Counted from the first letter of the stretch, positions 3,487-49,723 are shown. The stretch is 64,000 bases of DNA from Armatimonadota bacterium (GCA_046292385.1 JBKBRF010000019.1:53249-117248); one strand, 5' to 3'. The notes: generated by a model not told the origin, from the letters alone. Program-made: numbers and translations.

Positions 3487-4341
3487 CTACGGGGCGGGGT
3501 CGAGGACCAGCATGTCGTAGACCTGCTGTCCTGGGATGGTGAACTGACGGCGCGGCTTCCAGGTGGCGGGGTCTAACTCCACGATCCCGCACTCCATCCG
3601 AGAGCGGGTGAGCAGCTTCTGGAGCGGCGTCTGCTTCTTCTTCCAGCCGCTGATGCCCACGTAGGCCATGCCCTCTGTGAAAACGAGGGCGCGGACGAAG
3701 CCGTGGAGGCGGCAGACGACCTCCTTCGACTTCTCCCGCAGGTTCAGCAGCGTCACCTCGGAGGTGTACGACTCGCAGCAGTAGAGCTGCTCCTCGTGCC
3801 AGACGAGGCTGTGCGGCTGGGCGAGCGGCTCGTAGAGCACCTGGTAGCCGCCGGTCTCCCAGTCGAGCCGCAGCACCTTACCTTCGTAGGCCCAGGCGTC
3901 GGTCTCGTTCTTCTCCTGGCGCCGTCCGGGGGAGAGGGTGAAGATCGTCAGCAGGAGCTGTCCGTTCACCTGCGCCAGGCAGTTGGCGTGGCAGACGTCG
4001 TCTTCCTGGCGGATGATCTGCAGGTCGTCGACCGGCCGCAGCTCGCGGTCGAAGCGCGCGATCCGGTTCGAGTCGCTTGCCACCAGGTAGAAGTGGTCGT
4101 CGATCCAGCGGAAGTCGTGGGCGCCGTGGAGCGCGGTATCGCCGATCGGCGTCACTTCCCAGCTCTCCGGCGCCAGGCGCCAGACGAAGCCGCGCGTGCC
4201 GACCACGTAATAACCGTCCGGCCCCCGGGTGATGCCGCGGCTCGGCTGCTCGGTGAGGCGGGTCAGCTCGGAGGTGTCGGCGTCGAGGAGGTAGACGCCG
4301 CCCTCGTCCGGGGTGAAATTGGTGATGAGCAGTCGCGCCAT
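3487..4341 (-). CDS. DUF4915/TIGR03032-like beta-propeller protein, paralog 1
   Basis: AHDF, DVCHANCLA, QPHSL, CCES, GFVRAL, VYD motifs; no signal peptide. Confidence 0.75.
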   Translation of the reverse strand: MARLLITNFTPDEGGVYLLDADTSELTRLTEQPSRGITRGPDGYYVVGTRGFVWRLAPESWEVTPIGDTALHGAHDFRWIDDHFYLVASDSNRIARFDRELRPVDDLQIIRQEDDVCHANCLAQVNGQLLLTIFTLSPGRRQEKNETDAWAYEGKVLRLDWETGGYQVLYEPLAQPHSLVWHEEQLYCCESYTSEVTLLNLREKSKEVVCRLHGFVRALVFTEGMAYVGISGWKKKQTPLQKLLTRSRMECGIVELDPATWKPRRQFTIPGQQVYDMLVLDPAP

Positions 4342-4344
4342 CCG

Positions 4345-5202
4345 CTACGCCTCGTCCACGATCAGCAGCTCGTAGACCTGCCGGCCGGGGATGCGGAAGT
4401 CGCGGCGCGGCTTCCAGGTGCGGGCGTCCAGCTCCACCACGCCGCAGGGGATGCGGAAGCGGGCGAGGAGACGGTCGAGCAGCGGGCCTTCGTTGTTCTT
4501 GCGCTGGCTGATGCCAATGAAGACGCTGTCGCCGTGGAAGGCGATGCCGCGGGCGAACCCGTGCATCCGGCGCAGGAGCTTCTTCGTCTTCGACTTCAGG
4601 TCGAGGATCGAGACCTCGGAGGTGAGCGACTCGCAGCAGTAGAGCTGCTCCCCGTGCCAGACCAGGCTGTGCGGCTGGCAGAGCGGCTCGTACACGATCT
4701 CGAAGCTCTTCGTCTCCCAGTCGAGCCGGAGCACCTTGCCCTCGCGGAACCAGACCGGCGTGGTGTTCTTCTCCTGCCGCCGCCCCGGGGAGAGGGTGAA
4801 GATGCTCAGGAGCAGGTGACCGTTCGCCGCCTCGATGCAGTTGGCGTGGCAGATGTCGTCATCGCTCTGCACCACCCGCAGCTCGTCCAGCACGTTCAGG
4901 CTGCTGTCCAGCCGCACCACCCGGTTGCCGGTGCTCGCCACCAGGTAGAACTCGTCGCCTACCGCGCGGAGGTCGTGGCACGCCTGGTACGGGGTGGCAC
5001 AGCGCTGGGTCACTTTCCACGTGGCGGGATCGAGGTGGCAGATGATGCCGTCCGGCTCGATGAAGTAGATCCCGTCCCGCCCGCGGGTGATGCCGTTCAC
5101 GCGGCGGTCGTAGAGCCGGCGCAGGCCGCCGGTCTCGGTCTCGAGCAGGTAGACCCCCGCCTCGGAGCCGCGGGTGTGGTTCGTCACCAGGATGCGTGGC
5201 AT
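4345..5202 (-). CDS. DUF4915/TIGR03032-like beta-propeller protein, paralog 2
   Basis: CHDL, DICHANCIE, QPHSL, CCES, GFARGI, VYE motifs. Confidence 0.75.
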   Translation of the reverse strand: MPRILVTNHTRGSEAGVYLLETETGGLRRLYDRRVNGITRGRDGIYFIEPDGIICHLDPATWKVTQRCATPYQACHDLRAVGDEFYLVASTGNRVVRLDSSLNVLDELRVVQSDDDICHANCIEAANGHLLLSIFTLSPGRRQEKNTTPVWFREGKVLRLDWETKSFEIVYEPLCQPHSLVWHGEQLYCCESLTSEVSILDLKSKTKKLLRRMHGFARGIAFHGDSVFIGISQRKNNEGPLLDRLLARFRIPCGVVELDARTWKPRRDFRIPGRQVYELLIVDEA

Positions 5203-5215
5203 GTGGGGCTGTGGG

Positions 5216-6121
5216 TCAGGCGGAGGGGGCGCCGTCGAGGAGGCGCACGTCGTAGATGTCCGAGCCGGGGATCGGGATCTTGCGCTTCACCTTCCAGGTG
5301 CGGGAGTCGAGCACCAGCAGCCCGGAGAAGGGGAAGAACTTGTCGTAGATCCGGCGGAAGAGGGGGAGGGTCTTCAGCCGCGCGCGGTCGCGGATCTGGA
5401 GAAGGCAGGCGCCGACCGCCAGCTCGTCCGGACCGAAGGCCAGGCCGCGAAGGAAGCCGCGGTACTGGCCCAGGTGCTTCGCCTTATGGTTCTGGAGGTC
5501 GACCCAGGTGAGGCTGGAGGTGTGGGACTCCACCAGGTAGATGCCGCCGTCCCGCGGGATCAGGCTGTGCGGCTGCGCGAGCGGCTCGAAGCGGACTTCC
5601 CACTTCTTGCGCTCCCAGTCCAGCTTCAGGATCTTGCCGGAGCGGTGCCAGGCACCGGTGAACCGCTTTTCCTTCCGCTCGCCGGGGCTCAGGGTGAAGA
5701 TCGAAAGGTAGATCTCGCCGTCGATCACCGTCAGGCAGTTCGGGTGACAGACGTCGCGGTCGTCCTCGATCACCTGGAAGCGGTCGACCATTCGGCACTG
5801 CTCGTCCAGGCGCACCACCTGGTTGCCGACGCTCGCCACCAGGTAGAAATAGCCGTCGTGCCACATCAGGTCGTGGCAGTCGCCCAGCGGGTAGCGGGCT
5901 ACCTCTTCGGTCTTCCAGGTCTGCAGGTCAAGGCGGTGGACCACCGACTCGCCCTCTTGCGGATCCCGGTAGCCGGAAACCACGTAGTAGCAGCCGTCCG
6001 GTCCCAGGGTCATCCCCCGGAAGGAGCCGCTCATGACGCGCTTGACGTGACCGGTGCTCGAGTCGGCGAGGTAGACTCCGCCTTCTTCCCGGTTGGAGCT
6101 GGTAATGAGATAGCGGGGCAT
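5216..6121 (-). CDS. DUF4915/TIGR03032-like beta-propeller protein, paralog 3
   Basis: ATG at 6121 (MPRYLITS) matches paralog N-termini; CHDL, DVCHPNCLT, QPHSL, GFLRGL. Confidence 0.75.
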   Translation of the reverse strand: MPRYLITSSNREEGGVYLADSSTGHVKRVMSGSFRGMTLGPDGCYYVVSGYRDPQEGESVVHRLDLQTWKTEEVARYPLGDCHDLMWHDGYFYLVASVGNQVVRLDEQCRMVDRFQVIEDDRDVCHPNCLTVIDGEIYLSIFTLSPGERKEKRFTGAWHRSGKILKLDWERKKWEVRFEPLAQPHSLIPRDGGIYLVESHTSSLTWVDLQNHKAKHLGQYRGFLRGLAFGPDELAVGACLLQIRDRARLKTLPLFRRIYDKFFPFSGLLVLDSRTWKVKRKIPIPGSDIYDVRLLDGAPSA

Positions 6122-6206
6122 TCTAAACCAGGGCTCCCGACCGCCGCGACCTGGCACGCGTTGAGCGTACCGGTCGCCGGACTGCGCGGGGGGTAGCGAA
6201 CGACCA

Positions 6207-6235
6207 ATTATAAGAGCTGAGCCGGGCCGGAGCAA
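6207..6235 (-). promoter_or_regulatory. Putative sigma70 promoter for the three minus-strand propeller genes
   Basis: Minus strand TTGCTC-N17-TATAAT (perfect -10) about 85 nt upstream of ATG 6121. Confidence 0.55.
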
Positions 6236-6398
6236 GCAAACTGCGGCTTCCGTGCCGCTTGCGCTGGAGACCTTCCCTTCGGCTACAATAGGGAGCGTCG
6301 GCCGGCAAGACGGTAAAGCTCAGCGCCTTCCACCGCTTTCCGCGGCGAGGGGCACGCGATCTCTTGTCGGAGACCGCCAGCTCTCCGAGACGCCATTC

Positions 6399-6484
6399 GA
6401 GTAAGAGTAGGAGAACGAGTAGGAGTAGGAGTGCCCGTACCGGGAGGTTCGGATTCATCCCTCATCGTTCATCCTTCATCCCTT
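6399..6484. repeat. (GAGTAG)n hexamer tract followed by (TTCATCC)n heptamer tract
   Basis: gagtaagagtaggagaacgagtaggagtaggagt (6399-6432); ttcatccctcatcgttcatccttcatccctt (6454-6484). Confidence 0.75.
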
Positions 6485-6533
6485 TACGGCTTACGAACGA
6501 AGTAGCTGAAAGCACCCGTAGTCCCCCCCGCCC

Positions 6534-7382
6534 ATGCCCTCTCTGCTCACTACCAGCCACACGCCGGCGCACGGCGGGGTCTTTCTGCTGAACACGGAGA
6601 CCGCAGAGACCCGCAAGATCCTCGACGTGCCGTGCCGGGGCATCACGCGGGGACCGGACGGCTACTACACCGTCGAGAACTTCGGCGTGGTCCACTACCT
6701 CGACCCGAAGACCTGGCAGCCGGTGCGCCGGGCGGAGACCGGGTACGCCTGGTGCCACGATCTCAAGTGGTTCGGCGGCTACTTCTACCTGGTGGCCAGC
6801 AAGGGCAACTGGGTGGTACGGCTCGACAGCGACTTCCGCGAGCTCGACCGGATGCAGATCGTGGAGAGCGACGACGACGTCTGCCACGCCAACTGCATCG
6901 AGGAGATGGACGGCGAGCTGATCCTGAGCATCTTCACCCTGGTGCCCGGGAAGCGGGAGGAGAAGAACGGCTCCCACCCGTGGCGGCACGACGGCAAGGT
7001 GCTCCGGCTCGACTGGCAGCGCCGCGGCTACGAGGTGCTCCACGAGCCGCTCTCCCAGCCGCACAGCCTGAACTGGCGGGACGGGCAGATCTACTGCTGC
7101 GAGTCCTACACGTCGAAGCTCTCCGTCATTCCCGGCGGGGGCCAGCGCCACCGCACGCTGCGGAAGCTGAACGGCTTCGTGCGCGGCCTCACCTTCGACG
7201 GAGACCGGGCCTTCGTCGGCGTGACCCGCCGCCGGCTGGAGCACTACCACCCCATGGTGCGCTGGTGGGCCCGCCTCACTCGCTGGTGCGGGGTGCTGGA
7301 GATGGACGCCAACACCTGGAAGCCGCTCCGACGCTACCCGCTGCCGAGCCGGCAGGTCTATGACCTGACCGTCGTGCGCTAG
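6534..7382 (+). CDS. DUF4915/TIGR03032-like beta-propeller protein, paralog 4
   Basis: CHDL, DVCHANCIE, QPHSL, CCES, GFVRGL, VYD; first gene of the + strand glycan operon. Confidence 0.75.
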   Translation: MPSLLTTSHTPAHGGVFLLNTETAETRKILDVPCRGITRGPDGYYTVENFGVVHYLDPKTWQPVRRAETGYAWCHDLKWFGGYFYLVASKGNWVVRLDSDFRELDRMQIVESDDDVCHANCIEEMDGELILSIFTLVPGKREEKNGSHPWRHDGKVLRLDWQRRGYEVLHEPLSQPHSLNWRDGQIYCCESYTSKLSVIPGGGQRHRTLRKLNGFVRGLTFDGDRAFVGVTRRRLEHYHPMVRWWARLTRWCGVLEMDANTWKPLRRYPLPSRQVYDLTVVR

Positions 7383-7396
7383 CCGAGACGACTCCG

Positions 7397-8221
7397 ATGC
7401 GCCCTGTCGAGAAGCAGCAAGACCTGCGGACCGTGGTCCACACCACGTGGGAGAAGTTCGCGTTCCGGTACGGCATCCGGTCGCGGGCCAAGCTGCACCT
7501 GCCGGACTTCCTGGGGATCGGCGCGCAGAAAGCGGGCACCACCTGGCTGGACCGGAACATGCGCGCGCACCCGGACCTGTTCCTCACCAGCCCCAAGGAG
7601 CTCCACTACTTCGACCTCCACTTCCACGAGAGCCTGAAGGAGTACTCGCGGAAGCTGCGGCCGGGGCTGGGGAAGGTCCGCGGCGAGATCACCCCCGGTT
7701 ACAGCACCCTCACCCGCTCCCGCGTGCGCTTCATCCGCGCGCTGATGCCGGACCTGCGCCTCCTGTTCCTGATGCGGAACCCGGTAGACCGGGCGTGGTC
7801 GCAGGCGATGATGACGCTGGTCAGCAAGCCGGGCCGGCCGTTCGAGAGCGTGAAGGAGGCGGAGCTGCTGGAGTTCTTCCGCTCCCCCGCCTGCCGGCTC
7901 CGCGGCAACTACCTGCGGACGCTGCGGATCTGGGAGAGCACCTTCCCCAAGGACCAGCTCTACGTCGGCTTCTACGAAGACATCAAGCAGCGCCCCCAGG
8001 AGCTGCTGCGGGAGGTCTTCCGCCACGTCGGCGTGCGTGAGGAGGTCGATTGGGACTCGATGCCGTACCGGGAGGTAATCCACCGCGGCGCCGGCATCCC
8101 GATGCCTCCGCGCATCCGGGAGGCGCTGGGGGCGCTCTACGCGCCGGAGATCGAGCGGCTCTACCAGCGCTTCGGCGACCGGGTGGCGGGATGGCGGGTG
8201 CGGACTCCCGCCGGGCGCTAA
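7397..8221 (+). CDS. PAPS-dependent sulfotransferase (heparan-sulfate 3-O/N-sulfotransferase-like fold)
   Basis: 5'-PSB loop PDFLGIGAQKAGTTWL, KELHYF, EITPGY, 3'-PB motif MRNPVDRAWS. Confidence 0.92.
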   Translation: MRPVEKQQDLRTVVHTTWEKFAFRYGIRSRAKLHLPDFLGIGAQKAGTTWLDRNMRAHPDLFLTSPKELHYFDLHFHESLKEYSRKLRPGLGKVRGEITPGYSTLTRSRVRFIRALMPDLRLLFLMRNPVDRAWSQAMMTLVSKPGRPFESVKEAELLEFFRSPACRLRGNYLRTLRIWESTFPKDQLYVGFYEDIKQRPQELLREVFRHVGVREEVDWDSMPYREVIHRGAGIPMPPRIREALGALYAPEIERLYQRFGDRVAGWRVRTPAGR

Positions 8222-8227
8222 CGAGTC

Positions 8228-9298
8228 ATGGACGTTCGCCCAGATACCTCCGGGGCGGTCGACACGCCGGTTCACCGGGACCGCGTCACCGTCGTGCTGC
8301 CTACCTACAACCGGCGCGCCAGCCTGCTGCGCTGCCTGGAGGCGCTGCTCGCCTGCGACCGGCGCGGGGTCGAAGTGACGGTGCGGATCGTCGACGACGG
8401 CTCCACGGACGGCACCGAGGCGGCCGTCCAGGAGCTGCGGGAGCGGTGCCCGGAAGGGTTTACGCTGGTCTACCACCGGCAGCGCAACCAGGGGCCGAGC
8501 GCGGCCCGGAACCTGGCGATCCGCGAGTCGGAGACCGACCTGATCCTCTTCATCGATGACGACTGCATCCCGGAGCCGGGCTGGATTTCCGCGCTGGTAG
8601 GAGTGGACTGGGACGCCGGCGTGGGCGCCGCGGCGGGACGCATCGTCTCGCCGGAGCAGTCGTCGTGGGTCTCCCGCTACTGCCGCCACATCGGGTTCAA
8701 CGATTTCCCGCCCCGGAGCGGCGTGGTGACCTTTGCGAACACTGCCAACTGCGCCTACCGGCGAGCTGCGCTGTTGGAGGTGGAGGGCCTGGAGGAGCGG
8801 GTCTCCGGCGGCGGGGAGGACCAGGACCTCACCCATCGGGTGGTGCTGCTCGGCTACCGCCTGGCCTACGCTCCGAACGCGGTGGTGCGGCACTTCCACC
8901 GGGAAAGTTTTCGGGTGCTGGCGCGCACCTTCTACCACCGCGGCTACCGGATGACGATGCGGAAGATCCTGTGGGGACGGCAGGCGCATCCCTCGTGGAA
9001 GTGGCTGAAGAAGGAGCTGATCTCGCTCGGACAGGTCGTCGGCACCGTCCGGAGCGTCCGCGCGGAGGCGCGCCGGCTGCGGGGTGAGGGGATCGAGGCG
9101 GGAGACGCGCTCCGCTTTGCCTGGATGGACTGGCTCCGCGAGACTCTCCTGCAGGCCGGGAAGATCCGGATGATGCTCCACATTCTCCGCGGCAAGCAGC
9201 AGGTTGCGCGGACGAGCCGCGGAGTGGCCGGCGACCTGGAGGCGGCGCTGGCGGCGCGCGCGCCGGGGCAGCTGGTCTCCGGAGAGTCTCATCCATGA
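8228..9298 (+). CDS. Glycosyltransferase family 2
   Basis: VVLPTYNR, VDDGSTD, GPSAARN, FIDDDC, GEDQDL. Confidence 0.92.
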   Translation: MDVRPDTSGAVDTPVHRDRVTVVLPTYNRRASLLRCLEALLACDRRGVEVTVRIVDDGSTDGTEAAVQELRERCPEGFTLVYHRQRNQGPSAARNLAIRESETDLILFIDDDCIPEPGWISALVGVDWDAGVGAAAGRIVSPEQSSWVSRYCRHIGFNDFPPRSGVVTFANTANCAYRRAALLEVEGLEERVSGGGEDQDLTHRVVLLGYRLAYAPNAVVRHFHRESFRVLARTFYHRGYRMTMRKILWGRQAHPSWKWLKKELISLGQVVGTVRSVRAEARRLRGEGIEAGDALRFAWMDWLRETLLQAGKIRMMLHILRGKQQVARTSRGVAGDLEAALAARAPGQLVSGESHP

Positions 9299-10296
9299 GC
9301 AGCCTCGACCTCTCCCGCGTCACGGTGATCGTGCCGACCTACAACCGCGCGGCGAGCCTCCGCCGCTGCGTGGAAGCGCTGCTCCGGTGCGATCCCGGCG
9401 GGGCACAGGTGGAGCTGCGGGTCTCCGACGATGGCTCGACGGACGACACGGAGGCGGTGGTCGCCGATTTGAAAAGGGCCGCACCTCCCGCGTTCCGGGT
9501 TCACTACCACCGGGGGGAGAACGGCGGCCAGTCGGCGGCGCGGAACCGTGCCATCGCCGCCTCCGATACCGACGTGCTGCTCTTCACCGACGACGACTGC
9601 GAGCCGGACCGCGGCTGGATCGCCGCGATGCTCCGCGCCGGCTGGCACCCGGGCCTGGGGGCGGTCGGCGGCCACCTGGTGGCGGCGGCGCGCGGCAACC
9701 GGGTCTCCCGCTACTGCCGGTACATGCGCTACAACGAGTACCCGCCGGACGACGCGCCGCCCCGGTTCGTGAACAGCGCCAACTGCGCCTACCTGCGCAG
9801 CGCGCTGGTGGAGCTGGGCGGCTACGAGCAGCTCCTGCCGCGGCTGGTGGACCAGGACCTCGGCCGCCGCATCGCCCTGGCGGGGTACGAGCTGCGCTAC
9901 CAGCCGGAAGCACGGGTGGACCACCACCACCGGGAGAGCGTGCGCGTGCTGGCGCGCGACTACTGGCGCCGCGGCTATTCCAGCATCCTGCGCAACGTAA
10001 TCTGGGACGCCGAGCTGCCGATTACCCCGGCGCGGATCCGCAGCGAGCGCCGGACCCTCTACCGCCGCGGCGCGCGGATGCTCCTCGCGCTGCCATTCGA
10101 GGTGGTCAAGCTGCCGTTCCAGGGGGTCGCGGTGGGGGACGCGCCGCTCTTCGCCTACCTGAACTGGCTGCAGTGGGTGCAGGGCCGCGCGGGCCAGATC
10201 GCGGTGATGGAGGCGATCCTGGCGGGGGAGCAGTCGACCACCCGCACCGCGCGCGTGGCGGTTGCGGCAGAATCGGCGGGAGCGGCGTCCTCATGA
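9295..10296 (+). CDS. Glycosyltransferase family 2
   Basis: IVPTYNR, DDGSTD, FTDDDC, NSANCAY; ATGA overlap with upstream gene. Confidence 0.92.
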   Translation: MSSLDLSRVTVIVPTYNRAASLRRCVEALLRCDPGGAQVELRVSDDGSTDDTEAVVADLKRAAPPAFRVHYHRGENGGQSAARNRAIAASDTDVLLFTDDDCEPDRGWIAAMLRAGWHPGLGAVGGHLVAAARGNRVSRYCRYMRYNEYPPDDAPPRFVNSANCAYLRSALVELGGYEQLLPRLVDQDLGRRIALAGYELRYQPEARVDHHHRESVRVLARDYWRRGYSSILRNVIWDAELPITPARIRSERRTLYRRGARMLLALPFEVVKLPFQGVAVGDAPLFAYLNWLQWVQGRAGQIAVMEAILAGEQSTTRTARVAVAAESAGAASS

Positions 10297-11351
10297 ACAG
10301 CGTACCCGTCCAGGACGCGGAGGGGCTCCGGGCAGAAGTCCCGGACCTCCGGCGGATCACCGTCGTCCTCCCTACCTACAACCGCGCGGAGAGCGTGCGG
10401 CGCTGCGTGCTCGGCATCCTCGCCTGCGACGTCGAGGGGCTGGAGGTCGAGCTGCGGGTGGTGGACGACGGCTCACCGGACAACACCGCGGAGGTGATCG
10501 AAGAGGTGCGGCGGCGCTACGACGGCCCGATCCGCCTGGTCTACGACCGCCAGCCGAACGCGGGCCAGTCGTCCGCGCGCAACCGCGCGATCCGCGCGGC
10601 GGAGACCGACGTGCTGCTCTTCATCGACGACGACTGCGTTCCGGATCCCGGCTGGATCCGCGGGCTGGTGAGCGCGGACTGGTCGCCCGGCGTCGGCGCG
10701 GTCGGCGGCAGGCTCGTCGCCGCGCAGAAGGGCAACTGGATCTCCGACTACTGCCGCTACATCCGCTACAACGAGTTCCCGCCGGACGACGGGCCGCTCA
10801 CCTTCGTCAACAGCGCCAACTGTGCCTACCTGGCCCGCGCCCTGCAGGAAGTCGACGGCTACGAGTGCTCTCTCCCACGCGGAGTCGACCACGATCTCGG
10901 CTGGCGGGTGATGCTCGCCGGCTACCGGATGCTCTACCAGCCGGAGGCCGTGGTGCATCATTTCCACCGGGAGAGCCTGCGAGTGGTGCTCAAAGACTGC
11001 TGGACCCGCGGCGCTTCCAACACGGTGCGGTCGCAGCTCTGGGCCAGCGGCAAGCCGGTGACGCCGCTGCGCCTATTGCGGGAGTACTGGGTGCTGGCGC
11101 TCTCGCTGCTCGACCTGCTGGCGCTGCCGTGGCAGATGGCGCAGATCGCGCGGGAAGGCGTGGCGCCGCGCAACTGGCTGCCGTACGCGCTGCTGGGATG
11201 GACCCGCCGCGCAGCCGGCCGCTGTGGCAAGATATCGATGCTGCGCCGCATCCTCAAAGGGCGCCAGCCGCTCCAGCGCTCCTCCCGGGTCGTCAAGCGT
11301 GTCCCGCCGCCACCCCACGCGCCGCACTGGGTCCGCGCCAGCCGGGAGTAA
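10293..11351 (+). CDS. Glycosyltransferase family 2
   Basis: ATG 10293 overlapping upstream TGA; LPTYNR, VDDGSPD, FIDDDC, NSANCAY. Confidence 0.92.
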   Translation: MNSVPVQDAEGLRAEVPDLRRITVVLPTYNRAESVRRCVLGILACDVEGLEVELRVVDDGSPDNTAEVIEEVRRRYDGPIRLVYDRQPNAGQSSARNRAIRAAETDVLLFIDDDCVPDPGWIRGLVSADWSPGVGAVGGRLVAAQKGNWISDYCRYIRYNEFPPDDGPLTFVNSANCAYLARALQEVDGYECSLPRGVDHDLGWRVMLAGYRMLYQPEAVVHHFHRESLRVVLKDCWTRGASNTVRSQLWASGKPVTPLRLLREYWVLALSLLDLLALPWQMAQIAREGVAPRNWLPYALLGWTRRAAGRCGKISMLRRILKGRQPLQRSSRVVKRVPPPPHAPHWVRASRE

Positions 11352-11530: not shown

Positions 11531-12595
11531 ATGCGAATCCTCTACGTCGGACGGAACGCCAGCATCGGCGGCGGCAGCACCTTCCGCCTCAACATGGGGC
11601 GCGGAATGAAGGCCCTGGGGCACGAGGTGTCCATCGCGACCTTTGGCGGGCCGATGGCGGCTCGCTGGGTGAAGGCCGGGCTCCGCTTCTACTGGGTGCC
11701 GCCGTTCCGGATCTTCTCGGGCATGGTCGAGCGGGTAATGCGGCGGGAGCGGATCGAGGTGGTGCACGCCTCCAACACCACCGCCGGCGACCGCGCCCTG
11801 CTGGCCTGCCGCCGCGCCGGCCTGCCGCTGGTGCTCTCGCTGCATAACACGATCAGCAACGAGGAGGCGAAGCACCAGTGCCTCAAAGAGGCGCGGCGGA
11901 TCGTGGTCTTCGACGACGGCGCCGCCCAGAGCGCGGGGAAGTTCACCTCGGAGTTCGACACCAGCAAGATCATCCGGCTGCCCCGGCCGGTGGAGCATCG
12001 TCCGCTCGACCCGGAGCGCCTGTCGCCGCACCACGTCGCCTACGTGGCGCGGATGAGCAGCCGGAAGGGCCGCGTGGCGCTGAGCCTGCTGGAAGGTTTC
12101 CGCGCCTACGCGAAGGAGTACCCGCAGGCCCGGATGACCCTGATCGGAGACGGCTCGCTGCGCGGGGAGGTGACCCGGCGCGCGGGGGAGATCTCCCGAG
12201 AGACCGGCTGCCGCATCGACGTCCACGGTCCCGTCCTCGACCCCGCGCCGCTGCTCGCCGGCGCGGGCCTGCTGGTGGGCGCGGGCTACGCGGCGCTGGA
12301 GGCGGCGATGCAGGGCCGCGCGGTGCTGGGGGCGGGCTTCAACGGGTACGGCCTGGTGACCGCCGACGCGGTGGAGGAGGCGGTCGCGGCCAACTTCGGG
12401 GACACCGTCGGCGGGTGGGAGATGACGCCGGAGAACATGCGGCAGGCGCTCCTGACGGTGACGAGAGCGTGGGACCAGCCCGCCGAGCGCGCCCGTTATT
12501 GGGGACTCGACCGGGTGCTGGCGCCGATCCACGCGATCGAGAACGTGGCGCCGCGCCTGGAGGCGGTCTACCGGGAGGTGCTGGAGCGCGCATGA
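11531..12595 (+). CDS. Glycosyltransferase family 4 (GT-B)
   Basis: N-terminal IGGG, GHEV, IEVVHA; C-terminal RMSSRKG, IGDG, ALEAAMQG. Confidence 0.8.
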   Translation: MRILYVGRNASIGGGSTFRLNMGRGMKALGHEVSIATFGGPMAARWVKAGLRFYWVPPFRIFSGMVERVMRRERIEVVHASNTTAGDRALLACRRAGLPLVLSLHNTISNEEAKHQCLKEARRIVVFDDGAAQSAGKFTSEFDTSKIIRLPRPVEHRPLDPERLSPHHVAYVARMSSRKGRVALSLLEGFRAYAKEYPQARMTLIGDGSLRGEVTRRAGEISRETGCRIDVHGPVLDPAPLLAGAGLLVGAGYAALEAAMQGRAVLGAGFNGYGLVTADAVEEAVAANFGDTVGGWEMTPENMRQALLTVTRAWDQPAERARYWGLDRVLAPIHAIENVAPRLEAVYREVLERA

Positions 12596-13821
12596 ACCAG
12601 CCGAGCGGCTCGGACGGCGACGCGCCCCGCGTCTTGATGGTCCTGAAGCGCGCCGGCGGCTACGGCGGGCTCCAGATGCAGGCGCGGCGGGTGGCGGTTC
12701 GGATGGCGGAGCGGGAACTGCCGGTCTCGATCGTGGCCCACACCCGGCGGCCGCTGACGCGGTCGCCCCGCTGGGCACGGCAGGTCTCCACGACCTTTCT
12801 CCAGGCACCGGAGCAGTGGAGCTTCGCCTGGAGGCTCTACCGCTACCTGTGCAGTCACCGGGAGAGCTACGACCTGGTCCACGTCCACGGCTTTGGGCTC
12901 GAGACGTTTGCGGCGATGGCCGCCCGGCAGCAGACCGGCCGGCCGCTGGTGGTGAAGCCGAGCGTGGCCGGCCCCGGCACCAAGCTCCACACCTACCGCC
13001 GCTTCTTCAAGCAGCTTCCCGTGCTGCAGCGCTGCTGGTCGCCGGTCGACCGCTGGGTCAGCATCAGCGAGGAGACTGCGGGCGATCTCCTGGGAATGGG
13101 GGTGCCGGAGAGCCGCATCGCGCGGGTGCCGAATGGCGTCGATACGGAGCGCTTCCGTCCCGCCGGCGAGGAGGAGCGCGCCCGGCTCCGGCGGCGATTC
13201 GGGGTGGGGGAGGGGGAGCGGGTACTCTGCACCGTGTCCCGCCTCCGGGGGCACAAGCGGGTCGACACGCTCCTCGGTGCCTTCGCGGAGGTCAGCCGGA
13301 ACGCCGGCCCGGCCCGCCTCTGGATCATCGGTAAGGGGCCGGAGCGCGGGCGGCTGGAGGCGCAGATCGCAGCCTCCGGGCTTTCGAGGCGCGTGGAGCT
13401 TCTCGGAGACTGCCCGCCGCGCCAGGTGGCCAGGCGGCTGCGGGCCTCCGACGCGTTCGGCCTGCTCTCCGACTGGGAAGGCCTTCCCAACGCGCTGCTG
13501 GAGGCGATGGCCTGCGGTCTGCCGGTGCTCGCGACACCGGTGAGCGGCAGCGTGGACGTGGTGGAGGATGGCGTGACGGGGCGGCTCGCGGCGCGCGACG
13601 ATGAGCCGGCGCTCCGCGCCGCGCTCCGCGAGGTGCTGTACGACGAGGAGGCGCGGCGCCTGGGGAAGTCGGCTGCCGCGATGATCCAGGAGCGCTATTC
13701 GCTCGACGCCACTGTCGACCGCCTCCAGCGCCTCTACGCGGCGTGTCTCCCTGCCGGCTCCCTCTCGTCGGCGCGGCAGGAGAGCGGAGAGCGGTGTGCA
13801 CTCGACCGGAGAGCCGGATAG
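12592..13821 (+). CDS. Glycosyltransferase family 4
   Basis: ATG 12592 (ATGA overlap); VPNGVDTERF, RLRGHKR, EGLPNALLEAMACGLPV. Confidence 0.93.
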   Translation: MNQPSGSDGDAPRVLMVLKRAGGYGGLQMQARRVAVRMAERELPVSIVAHTRRPLTRSPRWARQVSTTFLQAPEQWSFAWRLYRYLCSHRESYDLVHVHGFGLETFAAMAARQQTGRPLVVKPSVAGPGTKLHTYRRFFKQLPVLQRCWSPVDRWVSISEETAGDLLGMGVPESRIARVPNGVDTERFRPAGEEERARLRRRFGVGEGERVLCTVSRLRGHKRVDTLLGAFAEVSRNAGPARLWIIGKGPERGRLEAQIAASGLSRRVELLGDCPPRQVARRLRASDAFGLLSDWEGLPNALLEAMACGLPVLATPVSGSVDVVEDGVTGRLAARDDEPALRAALREVLYDEEARRLGKSAAAMIQERYSLDATVDRLQRLYAACLPAGSLSSARQESGERCALDRRAG

Positions 13822-14010
13822 ACTTACACCGCCCTGCACTCGCACCGAAGGCCGTACTGCGTCTCACTTTTTGAGTGGGCGCAAGGGAGAGCGGGGGAGC
13901 GAGAGAGAGCCTTGGCGGGACCGCGGTCGCCCACTCTCCATTGCTCCCATTCTCCCACTCAGTCAAGCTGCCGGCCCCACGGATCGCAGGGGCCGTTGTA
14001 TCAGTCCAGC

Positions 14011-14514
14011 ATGCCCCGCTCCACCGCCCAGAAGCTCGTCTCGCGCGAGCAGCTCTCGTCCCTCGGAGACCGGCTCCGCGCCGAAGGCCGGCGAGTGGTC
14101 TTCACTAACGGCTGCTTCGACCTGCTTCACGTGGGGCACCTGCGCTACCTGGCGCAGGCGCGGGAGCTGGGCGACGCGCTGGTGGTCGGCGTCAACACCG
14201 ATGCCGGCGTGCGGCGGCTCAAGGGCCCGTCCCGCCCCCTCGTCAGCGAGGAAGAGCGCGCCGAGCTGCTGGCGGGGCTCGAATGCGTCGACTGGGTGAC
14301 GCTCTTCGATGAGCCGACCCCGGTAGCGACGATCGCCGCGCTGCGGCCGCACCTCCACGTGAAGGGCGGCGACTACCGGCCGGACGACCTACCCGAGGCG
14401 GAAGTGGTCCGGTCGTACGGCGGAGAGATCGCCATTATGCCGCTGGTGCCGGGGCGGTCCACCACCAGCCTCGCGGAGAAGATCCGGGAGACGGGGGAGA
14501 ACGAGCAGAAATGA
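14011..14514 (+). CDS. rfaE2: D-glycero-beta-D-manno-heptose 1-phosphate adenylyltransferase (RfaE domain II, stand-alone)
   Basis: VFTNGCFDLLHVGH, KGPSRP, VKGGDY, GRSTT; ATG 14011. Confidence 0.9.
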   Translation: MPRSTAQKLVSREQLSSLGDRLRAEGRRVVFTNGCFDLLHVGHLRYLAQARELGDALVVGVNTDAGVRRLKGPSRPLVSEEERAELLAGLECVDWVTLFDEPTPVATIAALRPHLHVKGGDYRPDDLPEAEVVRSYGGEIAIMPLVPGRSTTSLAEKIRETGENEQK

Positions 14515-15227
14515 AGGTGATGGGAGTCGTTCCCGCCCGGTATGCTTCCAGCCGGTTCCCGGGCAAGCCGCTCGCGGTGATCGCCGGAAAGACGATGATC
14601 GAGCACGTCTACCGGCGCGCCAGCGAGGCGAAGTCGCTCCAGGAGCTGTGGGTCGCCACCGACGACGAGCGGATCTTCGCCGCGGTGGAGGCGTTCGGCG
14701 GGAACGTGGTAATGACGCGCCCGGACCACCCGACCGGCACCGACCGGATCGCGGAGGCGGCCAGCGGCCTCGACGCGGAGGTGATCGTCAACATCCAGGG
14801 CGACGAGCCGCTGCTCGACCCGGGCGAGATCGACGCCGTGGTGGAGCCGTTCACGACGGAGCCGGACGTGGTGATGTCGACCGCCGCCACGCCGATCAAA
14901 GACCCGCGCGACGTACAGGACCCCGGGGTGGTGAAGGTGGTGCTCGATCGCCGCGGCTTCGCGCTCTACTTCTCCCGCCTGCCGATCCCGTACTACCGCG
15001 CCGCCTCGGACGGCCGCTGGCTCAAGCACCTGGGGCTCTACGCCTACCGCCGCGACTTCCTGTTCACCTACGCCGCGCTGCCGCCCACCCCGCTGGAAGC
15101 GGCCGAGCGCCTGGAGCAGCTCCGCGCGCTGGAGCACGGGCACCGCATCCGGGTGGTGCTGACGGACCACGACGCGGTGAGCGTCGACACGCCGCAGGAC
15201 CTGGAGCGGGTCCGGGCGCTCTTCTAA
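14511..15227 (+). CDS. kdsB: 3-deoxy-manno-octulosonate cytidylyltransferase (CMP-Kdo synthetase)
   Basis: PARYASSRFPGKPL, TGTDR, NIQGDEP, LYFSR, HLGLYAY, LEQLRALE, VDT. Confidence 0.96.
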   Translation: MKVMGVVPARYASSRFPGKPLAVIAGKTMIEHVYRRASEAKSLQELWVATDDERIFAAVEAFGGNVVMTRPDHPTGTDRIAEAASGLDAEVIVNIQGDEPLLDPGEIDAVVEPFTTEPDVVMSTAATPIKDPRDVQDPGVVKVVLDRRGFALYFSRLPIPYYRAASDGRWLKHLGLYAYRRDFLFTYAALPPTPLEAAERLEQLRALEHGHRIRVVLTDHDAVSVDTPQDLERVRALF

Positions 15228-15237
15228 GGAACTCCCC

Positions 15238-16065
15238 ATGACTCCGTTTCAGATCGGCGCGGTTGAAGTTGGCGGCCCCTCGCTCTGCGTCATCGCCGGG
15301 CCGTGCGTGATCGAAGACGAGGAGACCTGCCTGGAAGTCGGGCGGGCGATGCGCGACACCTGCGCGGAGCTCGGCTTCGGCTACGTCTTCAAGGCGAGCT
15401 ACGACAAGGCGAACCGCACCAGCATCCAGTCCTTCCGCGGTCCCGGCCTGGAGCGCGGCACGGAGATCCTGGGCCGCGTGCGCGAGGCGCTCGGCACTCC
15501 CGCGCTGACCGACTTCCACGAGGCCGGGCAGGCGGCCCGCATCGCTCCGGCGGTCGACATTCTTCAGGTCCCCGCCTTCCTGGCCCGCCAGACCGATCTG
15601 CTGGTCGCCGCGGCGGAGACCGGCCGCGCCGTCAACGTCAAGAAGGCGCAGTTCATGGCGCCGTGGGACATGGGGCAGGTGGTCGGAAAGCTCCGGGAGG
15701 CCGGCTGCGACCGGATCCTGCTGACCGAGCGGGGGGTCTCGTTCGGGTACAACACCCTGGTGGTCGACTTCCGCAGCCTCCCCCAGATGCGCGCCCTCGG
15801 GCACCCGGTCTGTTTCGATGTGACGCACAGCATGCAGCAGCCGAGCGGCCAGGGGAGCCAGTCCGGCGCGACCCGGGAATACGCGGGACACCTGGCGCGC
15901 GCCGCGGTAGCGGTGGGGATCGACGCGCTGTTCCTGGAAGTCCACCCGGAGCCCGCCCGCGCGAAGAGCGACGCCGCCGCCCAGCTCAACATCGAGGAGG
16001 CCCGCACGCTGCTCCGCCAGATCGCGAAGCTGCGGCAGGTGATGGGGGAGATGCCGAACCTTTAA
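15238..16065 (+). CDS. kdsA: Kdo-8-phosphate synthase
   Basis: IAGPCVIE, FKASYDKANRTS, QVPAFLARQTDL, NVKKAQF, TERG, FDVTHS, FLEVHP. Confidence 0.97.
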   Translation: MTPFQIGAVEVGGPSLCVIAGPCVIEDEETCLEVGRAMRDTCAELGFGYVFKASYDKANRTSIQSFRGPGLERGTEILGRVREALGTPALTDFHEAGQAARIAPAVDILQVPAFLARQTDLLVAAAETGRAVNVKKAQFMAPWDMGQVVGKLREAGCDRILLTERGVSFGYNTLVVDFRSLPQMRALGHPVCFDVTHSMQQPSGQGSQSGATREYAGHLARAAVAVGIDALFLEVHPEPARAKSDAAAQLNIEEARTLLRQIAKLRQVMGEMPNL

Positions 16066-16265: not shown

Positions 16266-17249
16266 ATGCAGCCTGAATCGCGAGAAGAGCTGATTGCCGC
16301 CGGGCGCGAGGTGCTTCGCCAAGAGGCGGAGGCGATCTCCTCGCTCTCCGCCCGGCTGGGCGGCGCGTTCGCCGACGCGGTCTCGCTGATCGTCGAGGCG
16401 GGGGGCCGCGTGGTGGTGACCGGGATCGGGAAGTCGGGCGCGGTGGCGCGGAAGTCGGCCGCCACGCTCGCCAGCACCGGGACCCCGGCGCTCTACCTTC
16501 ACCCGGCGGAGGGCGTCCACGGCGACCTCGGCATGGTGACCCGTCATGACGTGGCGGTCGCCCTCTCCTACAGCGGCGAGACCGACGAGATCCTGGCGAT
16601 CCTGCCGGTGCTGAAGCGGCTGGGAGTGGGACTGATCGCCGTGACCGGCAAGCCGGGCTCCACCCTGGCGGAAGCGGCCGACGTGGTGCTCGACGTCTCC
16701 GTCGAGCGGGAAGCCTGCCCGCTCAACCTGGCGCCGACCACCTCCACCACCGCGATGCTGGCGCTGATGGACGCCCTCGCGGTGGCGGCGATGAGCGTGC
16801 GGCGGTTCACGAAAGACGACTACGCCCTCTTCCACCCCGCCGGCTCGCTGGGGCGCCGGCTGCTGCTGCGGGTGGGGGACCTGATGCGCCGCGGGGAGCG
16901 GGTGGCAGTCTGCTCTCCGGAAAGCTCCATCCGGGACGCGCTCTTCACCATCACCAGCGCGCAGTCCGGCTGCGTCTTCGCGGTCGACGCGGACGGCGCC
17001 TACCTCGGCCTGCTCACCGACGGCGACATCCGCCGCCTGCTGCTGCGGGACGCCGCGGCGCTCGATCGGACCGTCTCCGAGGTGCTGAACCGGCGGGGCC
17101 GGTCCACCTCGCCGGAGCGGCTCGTCACGGAGGCGCTGGAGGTGATGCAGCAGCCGCCGGAGTGCTCCGAGCTGCCGGTGCTGGACGAGTGCGGGGTGCC
17201 GGTCGGGGTACTCAATCTCAAAGATATTGCACGCGCCGGCATATTCTAA
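16266..17249 (+). CDS. kdsD: Arabinose-5-phosphate isomerase, KpsF/GutQ family (SIS + CBS)
   Basis: TGIGKSG, LASTGTP, HGDLG, SYSGET, EACPLNLAPTTST, FHPAGSLG, TDGDIRR. Confidence 0.95.
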   Translation: MQPESREELIAAGREVLRQEAEAISSLSARLGGAFADAVSLIVEAGGRVVVTGIGKSGAVARKSAATLASTGTPALYLHPAEGVHGDLGMVTRHDVAVALSYSGETDEILAILPVLKRLGVGLIAVTGKPGSTLAEAADVVLDVSVEREACPLNLAPTTSTTAMLALMDALAVAAMSVRRFTKDDYALFHPAGSLGRRLLLRVGDLMRRGERVAVCSPESSIRDALFTITSAQSGCVFAVDADGAYLGLLTDGDIRRLLLRDAAALDRTVSEVLNRRGRSTSPERLVTEALEVMQQPPECSELPVLDECGVPVGVLNLKDIARAGIF

Positions 17250-21147: not shown

Positions 21148-22320
21148 ATGAAGCAACGAAAGAAATCCGCGCTCGTCGTGGGCGCGCTGCTGCTTGTCAC
21201 ACTCCTCGTCGTATGGGCCTCCCGGGGTGCCTGGGAGCCGGCGGTCGCGCGGAGCCTCCCGGACGGAGCGCTTCACAGACTGGTCCAGGCGTGGCCGGGC
21301 TCCGGGGCCGTGCAGCTGGAGGTAGGGCGCCGCGCCTGGGACGCGGGCCGGCTCGGCGAGGCCGAGTGGGCCATGGCGGCCGCCGTCGAGCTGCTTCCCG
21401 CCGACCCGGCGGCCCGGGCGGAGTACACCCTGGTCCTTGCCGACCGGCAGGACATGCGGAACGCCGAGGCTGCTTACCGCGAGCTCGGCGCCCGTTTCCC
21501 CGGCAGTCCCCACGAGCGGATCGTGGAGGCGAGGTATCGTCTCGCCAGCGAGGGGCCCGGCTCCGCGGCCCCCCTGCTGCGGGAGCTGACTGAGCGCGCG
21601 CCGGAGCTGGCGGAGGCCTGGTATCTTCTGGGCTACTGCGCGGCCGAGCGCGGCGCGACGGAAGAGGCGCTCTCCGCGTTCCGCCGCGCGGTACGGCTCC
21701 GGCCCCGCTCGGGGCGGTACCACCGGGAGCTGGGGCAGGTGCTTCACCGGGTCGGCCAGCTCGATGCGGCGGAAGCGAGCATCCGCCGGGCACTCGAGCT
21801 CGCACCTTCGGACGACGCGACGGCGCTGGCGCTGGCGGAGCTGCTCCTCGATCGAGACCTCTCGGAGCAAAAGCTCACCGAGGCGGAGTCACTGCTGCAG
21901 TCCGCGCGTACGAGCGAGACCCTCCGCCTGGCGGCGTGTAAGGCGCTGGGACGAGTTGCCCTCGCCCGGAACGACTGGGACGCGGCGGAGCGGGCCTACG
22001 CCGAGGCGGCTCAGTCCAACGGGCAGGATCCGGACGCGCTCTACGGCCTCGCGCAGGCGCTGCGGGCGAAACGCGACCCACGCTACTCGGGCGTCCTGCA
22101 GCGGTTCCGGGTCGCCGAAACGACGCAGCGCGAGGAGCGATACCTTCGGGGCGCGCTCAAGGAGCGGCCGAACGACCCCGAAACCCGCGCGCGCCTCGCC
22201 CGCTTCTACCACCGGCTGGGACGTGTTGCCGAGGCGAGGGCCGTGCTCACCGGCTCGAGCTCCGAGACCCCGCGGGAGGCGCTCTCCGACGCCTTCAATC
22301 CCCAGGAGGCGCGCCGGTGA
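21148..22320 (+). CDS. Membrane-anchored TPR protein (module TPR-1)
   Basis: N-terminal basic + hydrophobic helix; repeated TPR consensus (AWYLLG...A...P); GTGA overlap with CRTAC1 gene. Confidence 0.85.
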   Translation: MKQRKKSALVVGALLLVTLLVVWASRGAWEPAVARSLPDGALHRLVQAWPGSGAVQLEVGRRAWDAGRLGEAEWAMAAAVELLPADPAARAEYTLVLADRQDMRNAEAAYRELGARFPGSPHERIVEARYRLASEGPGSAAPLLRELTERAPELAEAWYLLGYCAAERGATEEALSAFRRAVRLRPRSGRYHRELGQVLHRVGQLDAAEASIRRALELAPSDDATALALAELLLDRDLSEQKLTEAESLLQSARTSETLRLAACKALGRVALARNDWDAAERAYAEAAQSNGQDPDALYGLAQALRAKRDPRYSGVLQRFRVAETTQREERYLRGALKERPNDPETRARLARFYHRLGRVAEARAVLTGSSSETPREALSDAFNPQEARR

Positions 22321-48770: not shown

Positions 48771-48978
48771 TCTGCCCCCCAAGGGGCAAGGCGCATTAGT
48801 GTTGCATTCGGCAAGTCATCGCCGCTATCCGGAAGCAGGAATCAGCTCGCTCGGCCCTTCCTGCGGGGTGAAGTCGCGTCCGTCCAGCCGCCTGGGCTCG
48901 ACGGACGCGCATGCGAGCACGGGATCGCGCGCCCGGTTGGGATCAGCAGATCCTCTCACCACCTACCGGCTACACCAT

Positions 48979-49398
48979 TTAGCGTCGAAGCTCGATCGCG
49001 TCGCGGAGGGCCTGCGGCTCGTCGGTGCCGATGCGATAGACCTTACCGTTCTTCATGTCGAGCTGGACGGCGTCGAGGCCGGAGACGTTGAAGAGCCAGC
49101 CATTCCCGATCCAGCGGATGCCCCAGCCGGCGATCCACGGGTTCCGCACCGTCTCGCACGCCTGGATCTCGGAGAGCGGGAAGTGGAACTGGATGAAGCC
49201 GGGTCCGTAGGCGACGTGGACGTACTTATCGTCGACGATCACCGTCAGCGAGGCGAAGAGGACGCCAATCGCTCCCAGAAGCAGGTAAGCGGGCCAGAGC
49301 ACCGCCGCGGAGCCGCCGGAGGCCAGCATCATCAGGATCGCCGCTCCCACGGTGAGGAGGATTACCCAGCCGGGCTGGGTGTGCCGGTAGTGAGTCAT
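48979..49398 (-). CDS. Small membrane protein with bacterial PH-like domain
   Basis: Two TMs then GWGIRW...YRIGTDEP motif. Confidence 0.75.
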   Translation of the reverse strand: MTHYRHTQPGWVILLTVGAAILMMLASGGSAAVLWPAYLLLGAIGVLFASLTVIVDDKYVHVAYGPGFIQFHFPLSEIQACETVRNPWIAGWGIRWIGNGWLFNVSGLDAVQLDMKNGKVYRIGTDEPQALRDAIELRR

Positions 49399-49515
49399 CT
49401 CGCAACCCCGCTCTCTCTCGTAAGAAGATCTGGGCGAAACCAGGGGCAGCAGCGGTGGTCGGTCTTCCGGTACGGACGCCGGGCCCTGAAGGACCCGGCT
49501 GCCTCATGAGAAAGC

Positions 49516-49573
49516 ACGCTGAAGCGCGCTCTACCTACGAGCACCCCGGCGTGAGCGCAGGGCGCTTCAGCGT
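49516..49573. repeat. 58-nt hairpin element, copy 1
   Basis: 46/58 identical to 56315-56372; followed by (CTCCGTCC/CTCTGTCC)n tract at ~49628-49662. Confidence 0.8.
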
Positions 49574-49723
49574 CCTTCCCCAGCAGACAGGGTGCTCCTT
49601 CAGGGGCACCCGCGCGTGTGGCAGCGCTCTCCGTCCCTCTGTCCCTCTGTCTCTCCGTCTCCGACAGTCGCCCACTCAGTTCCATTTAACGGGAGACAGC
49701 TCGGGCACGGTGCGATAGTGCCG

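Follow-up and report, generated by a model that had tools for sequence, protein, structure and literature searches.

The subject of this report is a set of four paralogous genes, P1 to P4, of the family DUF4915 (PF16261), which lie next to a gene for a sulfotransferase of the type that uses 3′-phosphoadenosine 5′-phosphosulfate (PAPS). The genes occupy positions 3,487 to 8,221 of a 64,000-nucleotide stretch of DNA from an Armatimonadota bacterium (GCA_046292385.1 JBKBRF010000019.1:53249-117248), the whole of which is referred to here as the window. The paralogs are predicted to be six-bladed β-propellers, and in the model three invariant histidines and an asparagine stand on the same blades and strands as the catalytic residues of the aryl-sulfate sulfotransferases (ASST). 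The reading preferred here, held tentatively and at somewhat less than an even chance, is that DUF4915 propellers are His-dependent sulfuryl (or phosphoryl) transferases which tailor glycans. The features on which this reading is based are as follows.

3487-4341, minus strand: P1, DUF4915 paralog of 284 amino acids (aa), from open reading frame (ORF) call, Pfam match and AlphaFold2 (AF2) model
P1 codons, minus strand: H75 at 4117-4119; H118 at 3988-3990; N120 at 3982-3984; H177 at 3811-3813; S191 at 3769-3771; R217 at 3691-3693
4345-5202, minus strand: P2, DUF4915 paralog of 285 aa, from ORF call and Pfam match
4669-4671, minus strand: codon of the putative nucleophile H178 of P2
5216-6121, minus strand: P3, DUF4915 paralog of 301 aa from the ATG at 6121, from ORF call, Pfam match and tree
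5567-5569, minus strand: codon of H185 of P3
6122-6533: divergent intergenic region of 412 bp between the P3-P2-P1 operon and the P4 operon, with presumed promoters
6534-7382, plus strand: P4, DUF4915 paralog of 282 aa which opens the plus-strand operon, from ORF call and Pfam match
P4 codons, plus strand: H75 at 6756-6758; H118 at 6885-6887; N120 at 6891-6893; H177 at 7062-7064; S191 at 7104-7106; R217 at 7182-7184
7397-8221, plus strand: PAPS-type sulfotransferase of 274 aa with Sulfotransfer_3 and Sulfotransfer_1 domains, from Pfam matches and motifs

Family, fold and invariant residues

All four paralogs exceed the Pfam cut-off of 35 bits for DUF4915, P1 to P4 scoring 63.9, 60.0, 55.6 and 56.9 bits. 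A fifth paralog is present on another contig of the same genome (L005:929-1780), where it adjoins a gene resembling the glycosyltransferase (GT) family GT9, and scores 48.9 bits on PF16261 in a genome scan. The equivalog cut-off of TIGR03032, 251.5 bits, is not reached by P1 to P4 (49.4-58.5 bits); on these scores they are best classed as relatives of the TIGR03032 equivalog group and not as its members. Canonical members of DUF4915 score >400 bits on PF16261, whereas the paralogs of the window belong to a rare, divergent subfamily. P2, P3 and P4 are 54, 41 and 45% identical to P1, respectively. The P3-P2-P1 genes form a tight minus-strand operon with gaps of 13 and 3 nt.

The original prediction, a note made on the window from its sequence, described four paralogs of about 285-300 aa which share an ordered series of motifs. 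The ORFs, the Pfam matches and the alignment agree with this, as H-D, C-H-x-N-C, IFTLxPGxRxEK, Q-P-H-S, E-S and G-F-x-R are unchanged in all four. For P3 the start taken here is the ATG in line with those of the other paralogs; the frame stays open as far as a TTG at 6235, which would give 339 aa. The gap of 14 nt which the note placed between P4 and the sulfotransferase is borne out by the coordinates (7382/7397). Its statement that none of the paralogs has a signal peptide also holds: the N-termini (MARLLITNF..., MPRILVTNH..., MPRYLITSS... and MPSLLTTSH...) contain no hydrophobic signal-like stretch, and residues 3-8 form a strand of the last blade in the model. The proteins are taken as cytoplasmic. 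As the note had said, the family is uncharacterised, and no paper naming DUF4915, TIGR03032 or PF16261 was found in the literature searched.

Relatives of the paralogs are few. A word-indexed search of 5.8 billion proteins gave 48 relatives at E ≤ 0.001 among 678 candidates, the closest non-self sequence being 60% identical, and a profile of the four paralogs matched 1598 representative clusters at E ≤ 0.001, 20 of them at E ≤ 1e-30. Across 251 genomes of the phylum, DUF4915 exceeds the cut-off in 4, all of the window's own family and with 1-5 copies each. Of the genomes sampled in two other phyla, 38 of 401 and 9 of 301 exceed the cut-off. A tree divides the subfamily into two supported clades, one P3-like and one P1/P2/P4/P5-like, and its long branches indicate that the paralogs are old and maintained. 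The cluster of the ESM Atlas nearest to P1 (287 aa, 55 members, 95% DUF4915) is 83% viral (Uroviricota), which implies that phages carry stand-alone DUF4915 genes.

The AF2 model of P1 was built from a 97-sequence alignment and has a pLDDT of 96.7 and a pTM of 0.93. It consists of six four-stranded blades, as expected from the earlier assignment of these proteins to the β-propellers, and blade 6 is closed by three N-terminal strands together with the C-terminal strand A. The model thus shares the propeller fold of ASST, a fold which is in itself generic. Foldseek returned generic propellers only from the PDB (designed SAKe proteins, kelch and LRP6), with a TM of about 0.7. When 48,161 chains were compared by VIA-align, 744 reached a Z of at least 8 and the YWTD receptors came out on top (3v65_B, Z 25.6). 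Several lactonases scored a Z of about 21, followed by peptidyl-alpha-hydroxyglycine lyase (PAL; 3fw0, Z 20.7, rank 24), the ASST Cpz4 (Z 20.1, rank 34) and E. coli ASST (Z 20.0, rank 37). A sequence-profile search of the PDB gave YWTD receptors as the best matches (2.2e-6), with soluble glucose dehydrogenase at 5.8e-3 and no enzyme with residue-level meaning.

Invariance was assessed in 97 diverse members of DUF4915, including all five paralogs, the far end of the set being only about 20-28% identical to P1. H75, H118, N120, P176, H177, S191 and R217 are kept in 100% of this alignment; among distant members Y275 is kept in 93%, R217 in 100% and R141 in 67%. The H/H/N/H/S/R hexad is present in 180 of the 181 proteins of at least 230 aa among the 197 collected (P0001-P0197), the single exception having a Cys in place of H75. 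It is also found in all 35 collected relatives longer than 600 aa. That the hexad persists regardless of the partner domains is in keeping with an enzyme that performs a single chemistry wherever it occurs.

Mapped by DSSP, H75, H177 and R217 lie on strand A of blades 2, 4 and 5, respectively, and G36 is found at strand A of blade 1. H118 stands one residue ahead of strand A of blade 3 and N120 one residue inside it. Y275 precedes strand A of blade 6, and S191 and S231 directly follow strand B of blades 4 and 5. From this propeller topology we infer that the conserved residues would come together in space as a polar ring, encircling the central channel at one of its mouths. The predicted ring is covered by two inserted loops, at 134-153 (the IFTLxPGxRxEK motif) and at 232-251.

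It could be argued that the propellers are non-catalytic, serving as acceptor-binding or scaffold subunits that hold the glycan, or its sulfated or phosphorylated end, for the neighbouring transferases. The best fold matches, the YWTD and kelch propellers, are indeed ligand-binding proteins. However, the persistence of seven invariant residues at such low identity, and of the hexad in all but one of the proteins irrespective of their partners, fits catalysis, and a purely binding role is very improbable.

Correspondence with aryl-sulfate sulfotransferases

The active site of E. coli ASST is described as His436, which is transiently sulfated, together with His252, His356, Asn358, Arg374 and Thr501 (PMC13426309). 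For a second ASST, a preprint lists His220, His283, Asn285, Arg301 and His350, with the three His at the base of the propeller cavity and sulfate contacts of 2.6-3.1 Å (preprint 10.64898/2026.10.08.757636). On the CFT073 sequence all six residues of the E. coli site are found in their stated places once an offset of +27 (a 27-residue leader) is allowed for, so that the catalytic motifs given for ASST in the original prediction agree with both the publication and the protein. The ASST model used for comparison was that of a database protein identical to CFT073 ASST, folded with 29 homologues (AF2 pLDDT 82). VIA-align of the P1 model to 3elq_A pairs residues 1-284 with residues 130-568 of the chain, 255 residues being aligned with a root-mean-square deviation of 3.0. 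As the alignment runs through the whole of both propellers, each blade is matched to the blade of the same number, and the site residues of ASST (mature numbering) correspond to P1 as follows.

ASST His252: strand A of blade 2; P1 H75
ASST His356: one residue before strand A of blade 3; P1 H118
ASST Asn358: one residue into strand A of blade 3; P1 N120
ASST His436: strand A of blade 4; P1 H177
ASST Thr501: one residue before strand A of blade 5; P1 about V216 (R217 adjacent)
ASST Arg374: directly after strand B of blade 3; P1 F134/T135

In the models, four of the six ASST site residues have an in-register counterpart in P1, namely the three His and the Asn; the Arg and the Thr have none. Counted from each His in turn, strand B begins 10, 12 and 10 residues further on in ASST and 8, 10 and 8 in P1. 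The ASST-like site that had been proposed for these proteins therefore stands in part: the His and Asn residues occupy the same blades and strands, but Arg374 and Thr501 are unmatched and no sequence homology is detectable. The structural comparison proposed with it, an AlphaFold model searched against ASST, had a similarly divided outcome. The strand register is the same, but the overall match, with ASST at rank 37 among so many propellers, is unspecific.

Several observations on structure and sequence weigh against an ASST-like mechanism. The fold as modelled singles out no ASST, both ASST and Cpz4 scoring below the YWTD receptors. In the place of Arg374 P1 has F134/T135, and in that of Thr501 about V216, which the invariant R217 only neighbours; R141, conserved in 67% of distant members, lies 7 residues further along the blade-3 loop. 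PF05935, the Pfam family of ASST, gave no match for the paralogs at E ≤ 0.01 and was not found in the source genome. Comparison with ASST by hhalign was not significant, with a probability of 1.6% for a single sequence and 16.9% for a 30-sequence alignment, in another register, and no ASST is present among the 35 PDB sequences found at E ≤ 10. ASSTs are also larger, with an extra β-sandwich (PF17425 in E. coli), and the E. coli enzyme is exported, whereas the paralogs are bare propellers of 282-301 aa that are taken as cytoplasmic. The proximity of the three His is itself deduced purely from topology, and three His on adjacent inner strands could equally form a metal site. We read the likeness to ASST as a shared catalytic core, acquired by very distant descent or by convergence, which would be a resemblance in mechanism and not membership of the family.

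If the His residues did bind a metal, the proteins would be hydrolases or lyases in which the three His, with D76, D115, N120 or Y275, hold a metal at the hub, as in PAL or the SGL/lactonase propellers. Such an enzyme would trim or rearrange the glycan, or would act by cleavage or elimination on an ester of sulfate or phosphate that its partner has formed. PAL contains a His3-Zn site with Tyr and Arg. The strong conservation of Y275 and R217 in distant members is in line with this arrangement, as are the Z-scores of PAL and the lactonases, which are similar to that of ASST. The fusions of hydroxylase, sulfotransferase and propeller described below would suit a sequence of hydroxylation, sulfation and action on the resulting ester. 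Yet the H-x-N on blade 3, between the single His residues of blades 2 and 4, is the pattern of ASST, which functions without a metal. Moreover, in 26 of 27 GT fusions the propeller takes the N-terminal place before a coiled coil, which is that of a cap-adding enzyme and where a trimming enzyme is unexpected. A metal-dependent hydrolase or lyase is accordingly judged unlikely.

Gene linkage and domain fusions

The linkage of DUF4915 to sulfotransferases is real and lineage-dependent. The locus samples used for the neighbour counts are small (28, 9 and 8 loci), and 3 of the 40 fetched loci (L064, L089, L093) were left out as their DUF4915 gene had been missed by ORF calling. Within the window's own family a sulfotransferase is found next door in 2 of 8 DUF4915 loci, the window and G004 (L023), the latter with two sulfatases as well. 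The other loci contain GT2 triplets, GT9, an epimerase or nothing telling. The nine positive genomes of the 301 come from the phylum of a metagenome-assembled genome (MAG) labelled Acidobacteriota, and in 7 of their 9 loci a sulfotransferase is fused to DUF4915 or lies ≤3 genes away. The seven include two polysaccharide loci of the Wzx/Wzy type (L084, L085), which contain 2 and 3 sulfotransferases and whose DUF4915 is divergent and low-scoring like that of the window. In the tree, sulfotransferase adjacency is spread out and not confined to one orthologue group: P4 clusters with copies from G001 and G006 that lack a sulfotransferase next door, and the copy from G004, which has one, sits elsewhere in an unresolved clade.

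The two domains also occur in one polypeptide. P0196 and P0197 are fusions of an Asp/Asn-hydroxylase, a sulfotransferase and DUF4915, and in the ESM Atlas Sulfotransfer_3 is present in 100% of a 150-member tri-domain cluster and in 62% of a 68-member cluster. Loci related to P0196 were gathered with one fusion protein as the query. In all six complete loci (L026, L027, L028, L030, L031, L032) the tri-domain fusion adjoins 1-4 large proteins with Chlam_PMP repeats or a right-handed β-helix. Eleven more loci encode the hydroxylase and sulfotransferase part alone, with no DUF4915 within 8 kb. In L077-L080 the genes on either side of the fusion encode LemA, an M48 peptidase, CarD, an AMP-binding enzyme and a flavin monooxygenase.

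A different picture is seen in the second phylum sampled, in which the centre MAGs are labelled Alphaproteobacteria and Cryomorphaceae and to which the 38 positive genomes of 401 belong. DUF4915 adjoins a TPR-GT41 protein, or is fused to one, in 7 of 28 loci (L048, L057, L058, L059, L087, L090, L092), and giant proteins with FG-GAP and RTX repeats lie beside canonical TIGR03032 genes (>400 bits) in 7 of 28 (L047, L048, L054, L056, L057, L058, L090). The grouping of TIGR03032 with FG-GAP/RTX proteins, type I secretion and TPR-GT41 looks like an adhesin-modification module.

The sulfotransferase adjacent to P4 matches PF13469 with 59 bits and PF00685 with 48.6 bits. In seven homologues G-x-Q-K-x-G-T and R-x-P-x-x-R-A-x-S are invariant, which we take to be the two PAPS phosphate-binding motifs. 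The source genome contains an APS (adenosine 5′-phosphosulfate) kinase and 8 Sulfotransfer_3 matches, only one of which, that of the window, adjoins a DUF4915 gene. Two paralogs of the window sulfotransferase (51% identity) lie on contigs C38 (about 48276-50094) and C26 (59825-60577); one of them is in tandem with another Sulfotransfer_3 gene, and neither contig holds DUF4915. Complex prediction for the sulfotransferase (7-row alignment) with P4 gave a score of 0.00, a 'no answer' which says nothing either way.

Gene context adds to the points that count against a sulfuryl transferase. No sulfotransferase is found in 6 of the 8 loci of the window's own family (the locus of the fifth paralog having little flank) or in any of the 28 loci of the second phylum, whose DUF4915 genes instead adjoin GT41, components of type I secretion and giant FG-GAP/RTX proteins. 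Most contexts of the family contain glycosyltransferases, GT41 or giant secreted proteins and no sulfotransferase. APS kinase is absent from 46 stretches (the window and 45 loci) searched by tblastn with the genome's own enzyme, and G005, which has the closest homologue of the window sulfotransferase (50% identity), is without DUF4915. The survey of sulfotransferase linkage suggested in the original prediction hence gave a recurrent association, as fusions and as neighbours, but one that fails altogether in the second phylum.

Glycosyltransferases are also fusion partners. Among the 35 relatives longer than 600 aa, 27 contain GT domains (GT2, GT4/GT1, GT25 or WbsX), 2 are the sulfotransferase fusions and 6 have no other Pfam domain; one of the 27 also contains a methyltransferase and one a weak Sulfotransfer_4 match. 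In 26 of these 27 an N-terminal propeller is followed by a coiled-coil-like stretch, as judged by a crude heptad heuristic, and then by the GT modules, which in P0151, P0165 and P0190 are ordered GT1-like then GT25. It has been reported that in the terminator/molecular-ruler/polymerase layout the distal domain adds the chain cap, phosphate and methyl-phosphate being among the known caps (PMC11231755). The propeller occupies the place of this cap-adding enzyme, and a transferase is on that account more likely than a hydrolase or a binding module.

These fusions bear on the nature of the transferred group. With the same architecture the propellers might transfer phosphoryl instead of sulfuryl groups, as a kinase-like capping enzyme, a phosphatase or a phosphotransferase acting via phospho-His, and the sulfotransferase would then be merely another tailoring enzyme. 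A sulfotransferase is mostly missing from the contexts of the family (0 of 28 loci; 27 GT against 2 sulfotransferase fusions), phosphate and methyl-phosphate are known chain caps (PMC11231755), and oxyanion-binding residues cannot tell sulfate from phosphate. On the other hand, the partner that is not a glycosyltransferase is repeatedly a sulfotransferase and not a kinase, and the solved enzymes with such a residue pattern all transfer sulfuryl groups. Phosphoryl transfer is considered quite improbable.

The donors used by the partner enzymes are varied and include NDP-sugars (NDP, nucleoside diphosphate), PAPS, S-adenosylmethionine, 2-oxoglutarate and acetyl-CoA, a GNAT domain (acetyl-CoA) being present in 44% of one ESM Atlas cluster. 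The original prediction had offered PAPS recycling as a further function. A role tied to a single by-product, such as the removal of 3′-phosphoadenosine 5′-phosphate by a phosphatase, is at odds with fusion partners that mostly use other donors; nothing points to PAPS recycling in particular, and this candidate was set aside.

The locus, its proposed chemistry and related systems

The plus-strand operon begins with P4 and the sulfotransferase and continues in the following order.

8228-9298, 9295-10296 and 10293-11351, plus strand: three tandem GT2 glycosyltransferase paralogs with 4-nt overlaps
11531-12595 and 12592-13821, plus strand: two GT4 (GT-B) glycosyltransferases
13912-14514, plus strand: cytidylyltransferase-like protein
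14511-15227, plus strand: KdsB-like protein (CTP_transf_3)
15238-16065, plus strand: KdsA-like protein (DAHP_synth_1)
16266-17249, plus strand: KdsD/KpsF-like isomerase with SIS and CBS domains, the last gene of the operon

The cytidylyltransferase-like protein presumably resembles the C-terminal half of HldE. A GT2 triplet like that of the window (8228-11351) is also found beside DUF4915 genes in the relative G001 (L018:6596-9740). The best NCBIfam match of the triplet is the mycofactocin glycosyltransferase MftF, which is below the cut-off (158 vs 280 bits).

Further downstream, at 21148-42125, the window encodes five proteins with FG-GAP_3 and UnbV_ASPIC domains (22317-23978, 24799-26439, 28933-30630, 35108-36742 and 37937-39607), with TPR proteins encoded in between. 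The same stretch contains a gene for a multihaem cytochrome-like protein (33764-34933) and two DUF1559 genes. DUF1559/N_methyl domains are found in the window and its relatives, and DUF1549, DUF1553 and DUF1501 in G001; as hallmark families they point to a planctomycete as the source organism. At 51878-56296 a protein of 1472 aa combines an S55 (SpoIVB-type) peptidase with propeller repeats (Reg_prop, SGL) and appears unrelated. The five ASPIC genes make up 5 of the 15 UnbV_ASPIC matches of the genome and lie 15-32 kb downstream of the propeller genes. Given that DUF4915 stands beside FG-GAP proteins elsewhere, those of the window may be clients of the tailoring cluster.

The acceptor might in that case be a secreted FG-GAP/ASPIC protein, or its glycan, modified before export, and not a lipopolysaccharide (LPS) or other polysaccharide; this would be a difference in substrate and not in chemistry. 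The concentration of ASPIC genes in the window is compatible with such an acceptor, as are the giant FG-GAP/RTX and TPR-GT41 neighbours of canonical DUF4915 and the Chlam_PMP/β-helix proteins beside the tri-domain fusions. A DUF4915 pair of G001 (L019) has an FG-GAP/ASPIC gene at a distance of 2.4 kb, and GT9-like genes flank paralogs. P4, however, shares its operon with genes for the activation of Kdo (3-deoxy-D-manno-octulosonic acid) or heptose and with GT2 and GT4 genes, as in a cluster for an LPS core or a polysaccharide. ClpB and an aminotransferase lie between this cluster and the FG-GAP array, and ASPIC genes are common in the source genome. A secreted protein is therefore not the probable acceptor here, the likelihood being low.

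Under the preferred reading of the propellers as His-dependent transferases, the group would be transferred by a ping-pong mechanism through a covalent histidine intermediate. H177, the counterpart of His436 in ASST, would be the carrier, H118 would act as acid/base and proton shuttle, and H75, N120, R217 and S191 would hold the tetrahedral oxyanion. For the window locus a sulfuryl group is the most probable, and it may be accepted by hydroxyls of the glycan that the nearby GT2 and GT4 enzymes assemble from precursors of the Kdo/heptose type. The old, diverged paralogs could supply different acceptor positions. The adjacent sulfotransferase would either charge a donor for the propellers, as in a relay, or sulfate a further position in parallel. 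A bolder version, possible but doubtful, is that DUF4915 represents a widespread cytoplasmic class of His-dependent sulfotransferases, a distant or convergent counterpart of the periplasmic ASSTs which caps or decorates bacterial polysaccharides and adhesin glycans. In the window a single PAPS-type sulfotransferase would then supply four or five specialised propellers, by which one envelope glycan would be sulfated at several positions.

The family DUF4915/TIGR03032 is large and occurs in polysaccharide polymerases, sulfation loci and adhesin-modification loci. The comparison suggests that it is an uncharacterised enzyme family for which a specific and testable, partly supported hypothesis of an ASST-like active site can be given. 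The new element is the blade-by-blade match to the catalytic core of ASST, which assigns candidate functions to individual residues of an orphan domain, with H177 as carrier and H118, N120, H75 and R217 as the oxyanion and proton-shuttle site. If true, this would mean a second route to bacterial glycan sulfation, independent of PAPS sulfotransferases, and possibly a new kind of polysaccharide chain cap. The proteins would also offer small soluble sulfotransferase scaffolds for biocatalysis.

Three known systems invite comparison. The ruler-polymerases WbbB, WbdD and K. pneumoniae O7 ORF6 share the order of domains with the GT-fused relatives of DUF4915, in which the propeller precedes the coiled coil and the GT. 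The paralogs of the window, by contrast, are stand-alone, have no coiled coil and are encoded in a cluster with no ABC transporter, and they do not qualify as terminator modules. The known terminators are Kdo transferases of GT99/GT137 or methyltransferase-kinases, and not propellers.

In the caprazamycin pathway the PAPS sulfotransferase Cpz8 and then the ASST Cpz4 carry out a two-step cytoplasmic sulfation (PMC4257720). No type III polyketide synthase or other enzyme for making a phenolic carrier was seen in the window, and a relay at this locus is purely hypothetical. What the two have in common is a PAPS sulfotransferase encoded together with a propeller-type enzyme in a cytoplasmic pathway.

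The closest parallel in detail is with the ASSTs themselves (3ELQ; Cpz4 9KF6; PF05935). R217, S191 and S231 are invariant in the DUF4915 proteins in place of Arg374 and Thr501. Both groups have a six-bladed propeller with the same closure, a His on strand A of blades 2, 3 and 4, and an Asn two residues past the His of blade 3. In the subfamily of the window they also have in common a Gln ahead of the His of blade 4, the residue whose ASST counterpart is transiently sulfated.

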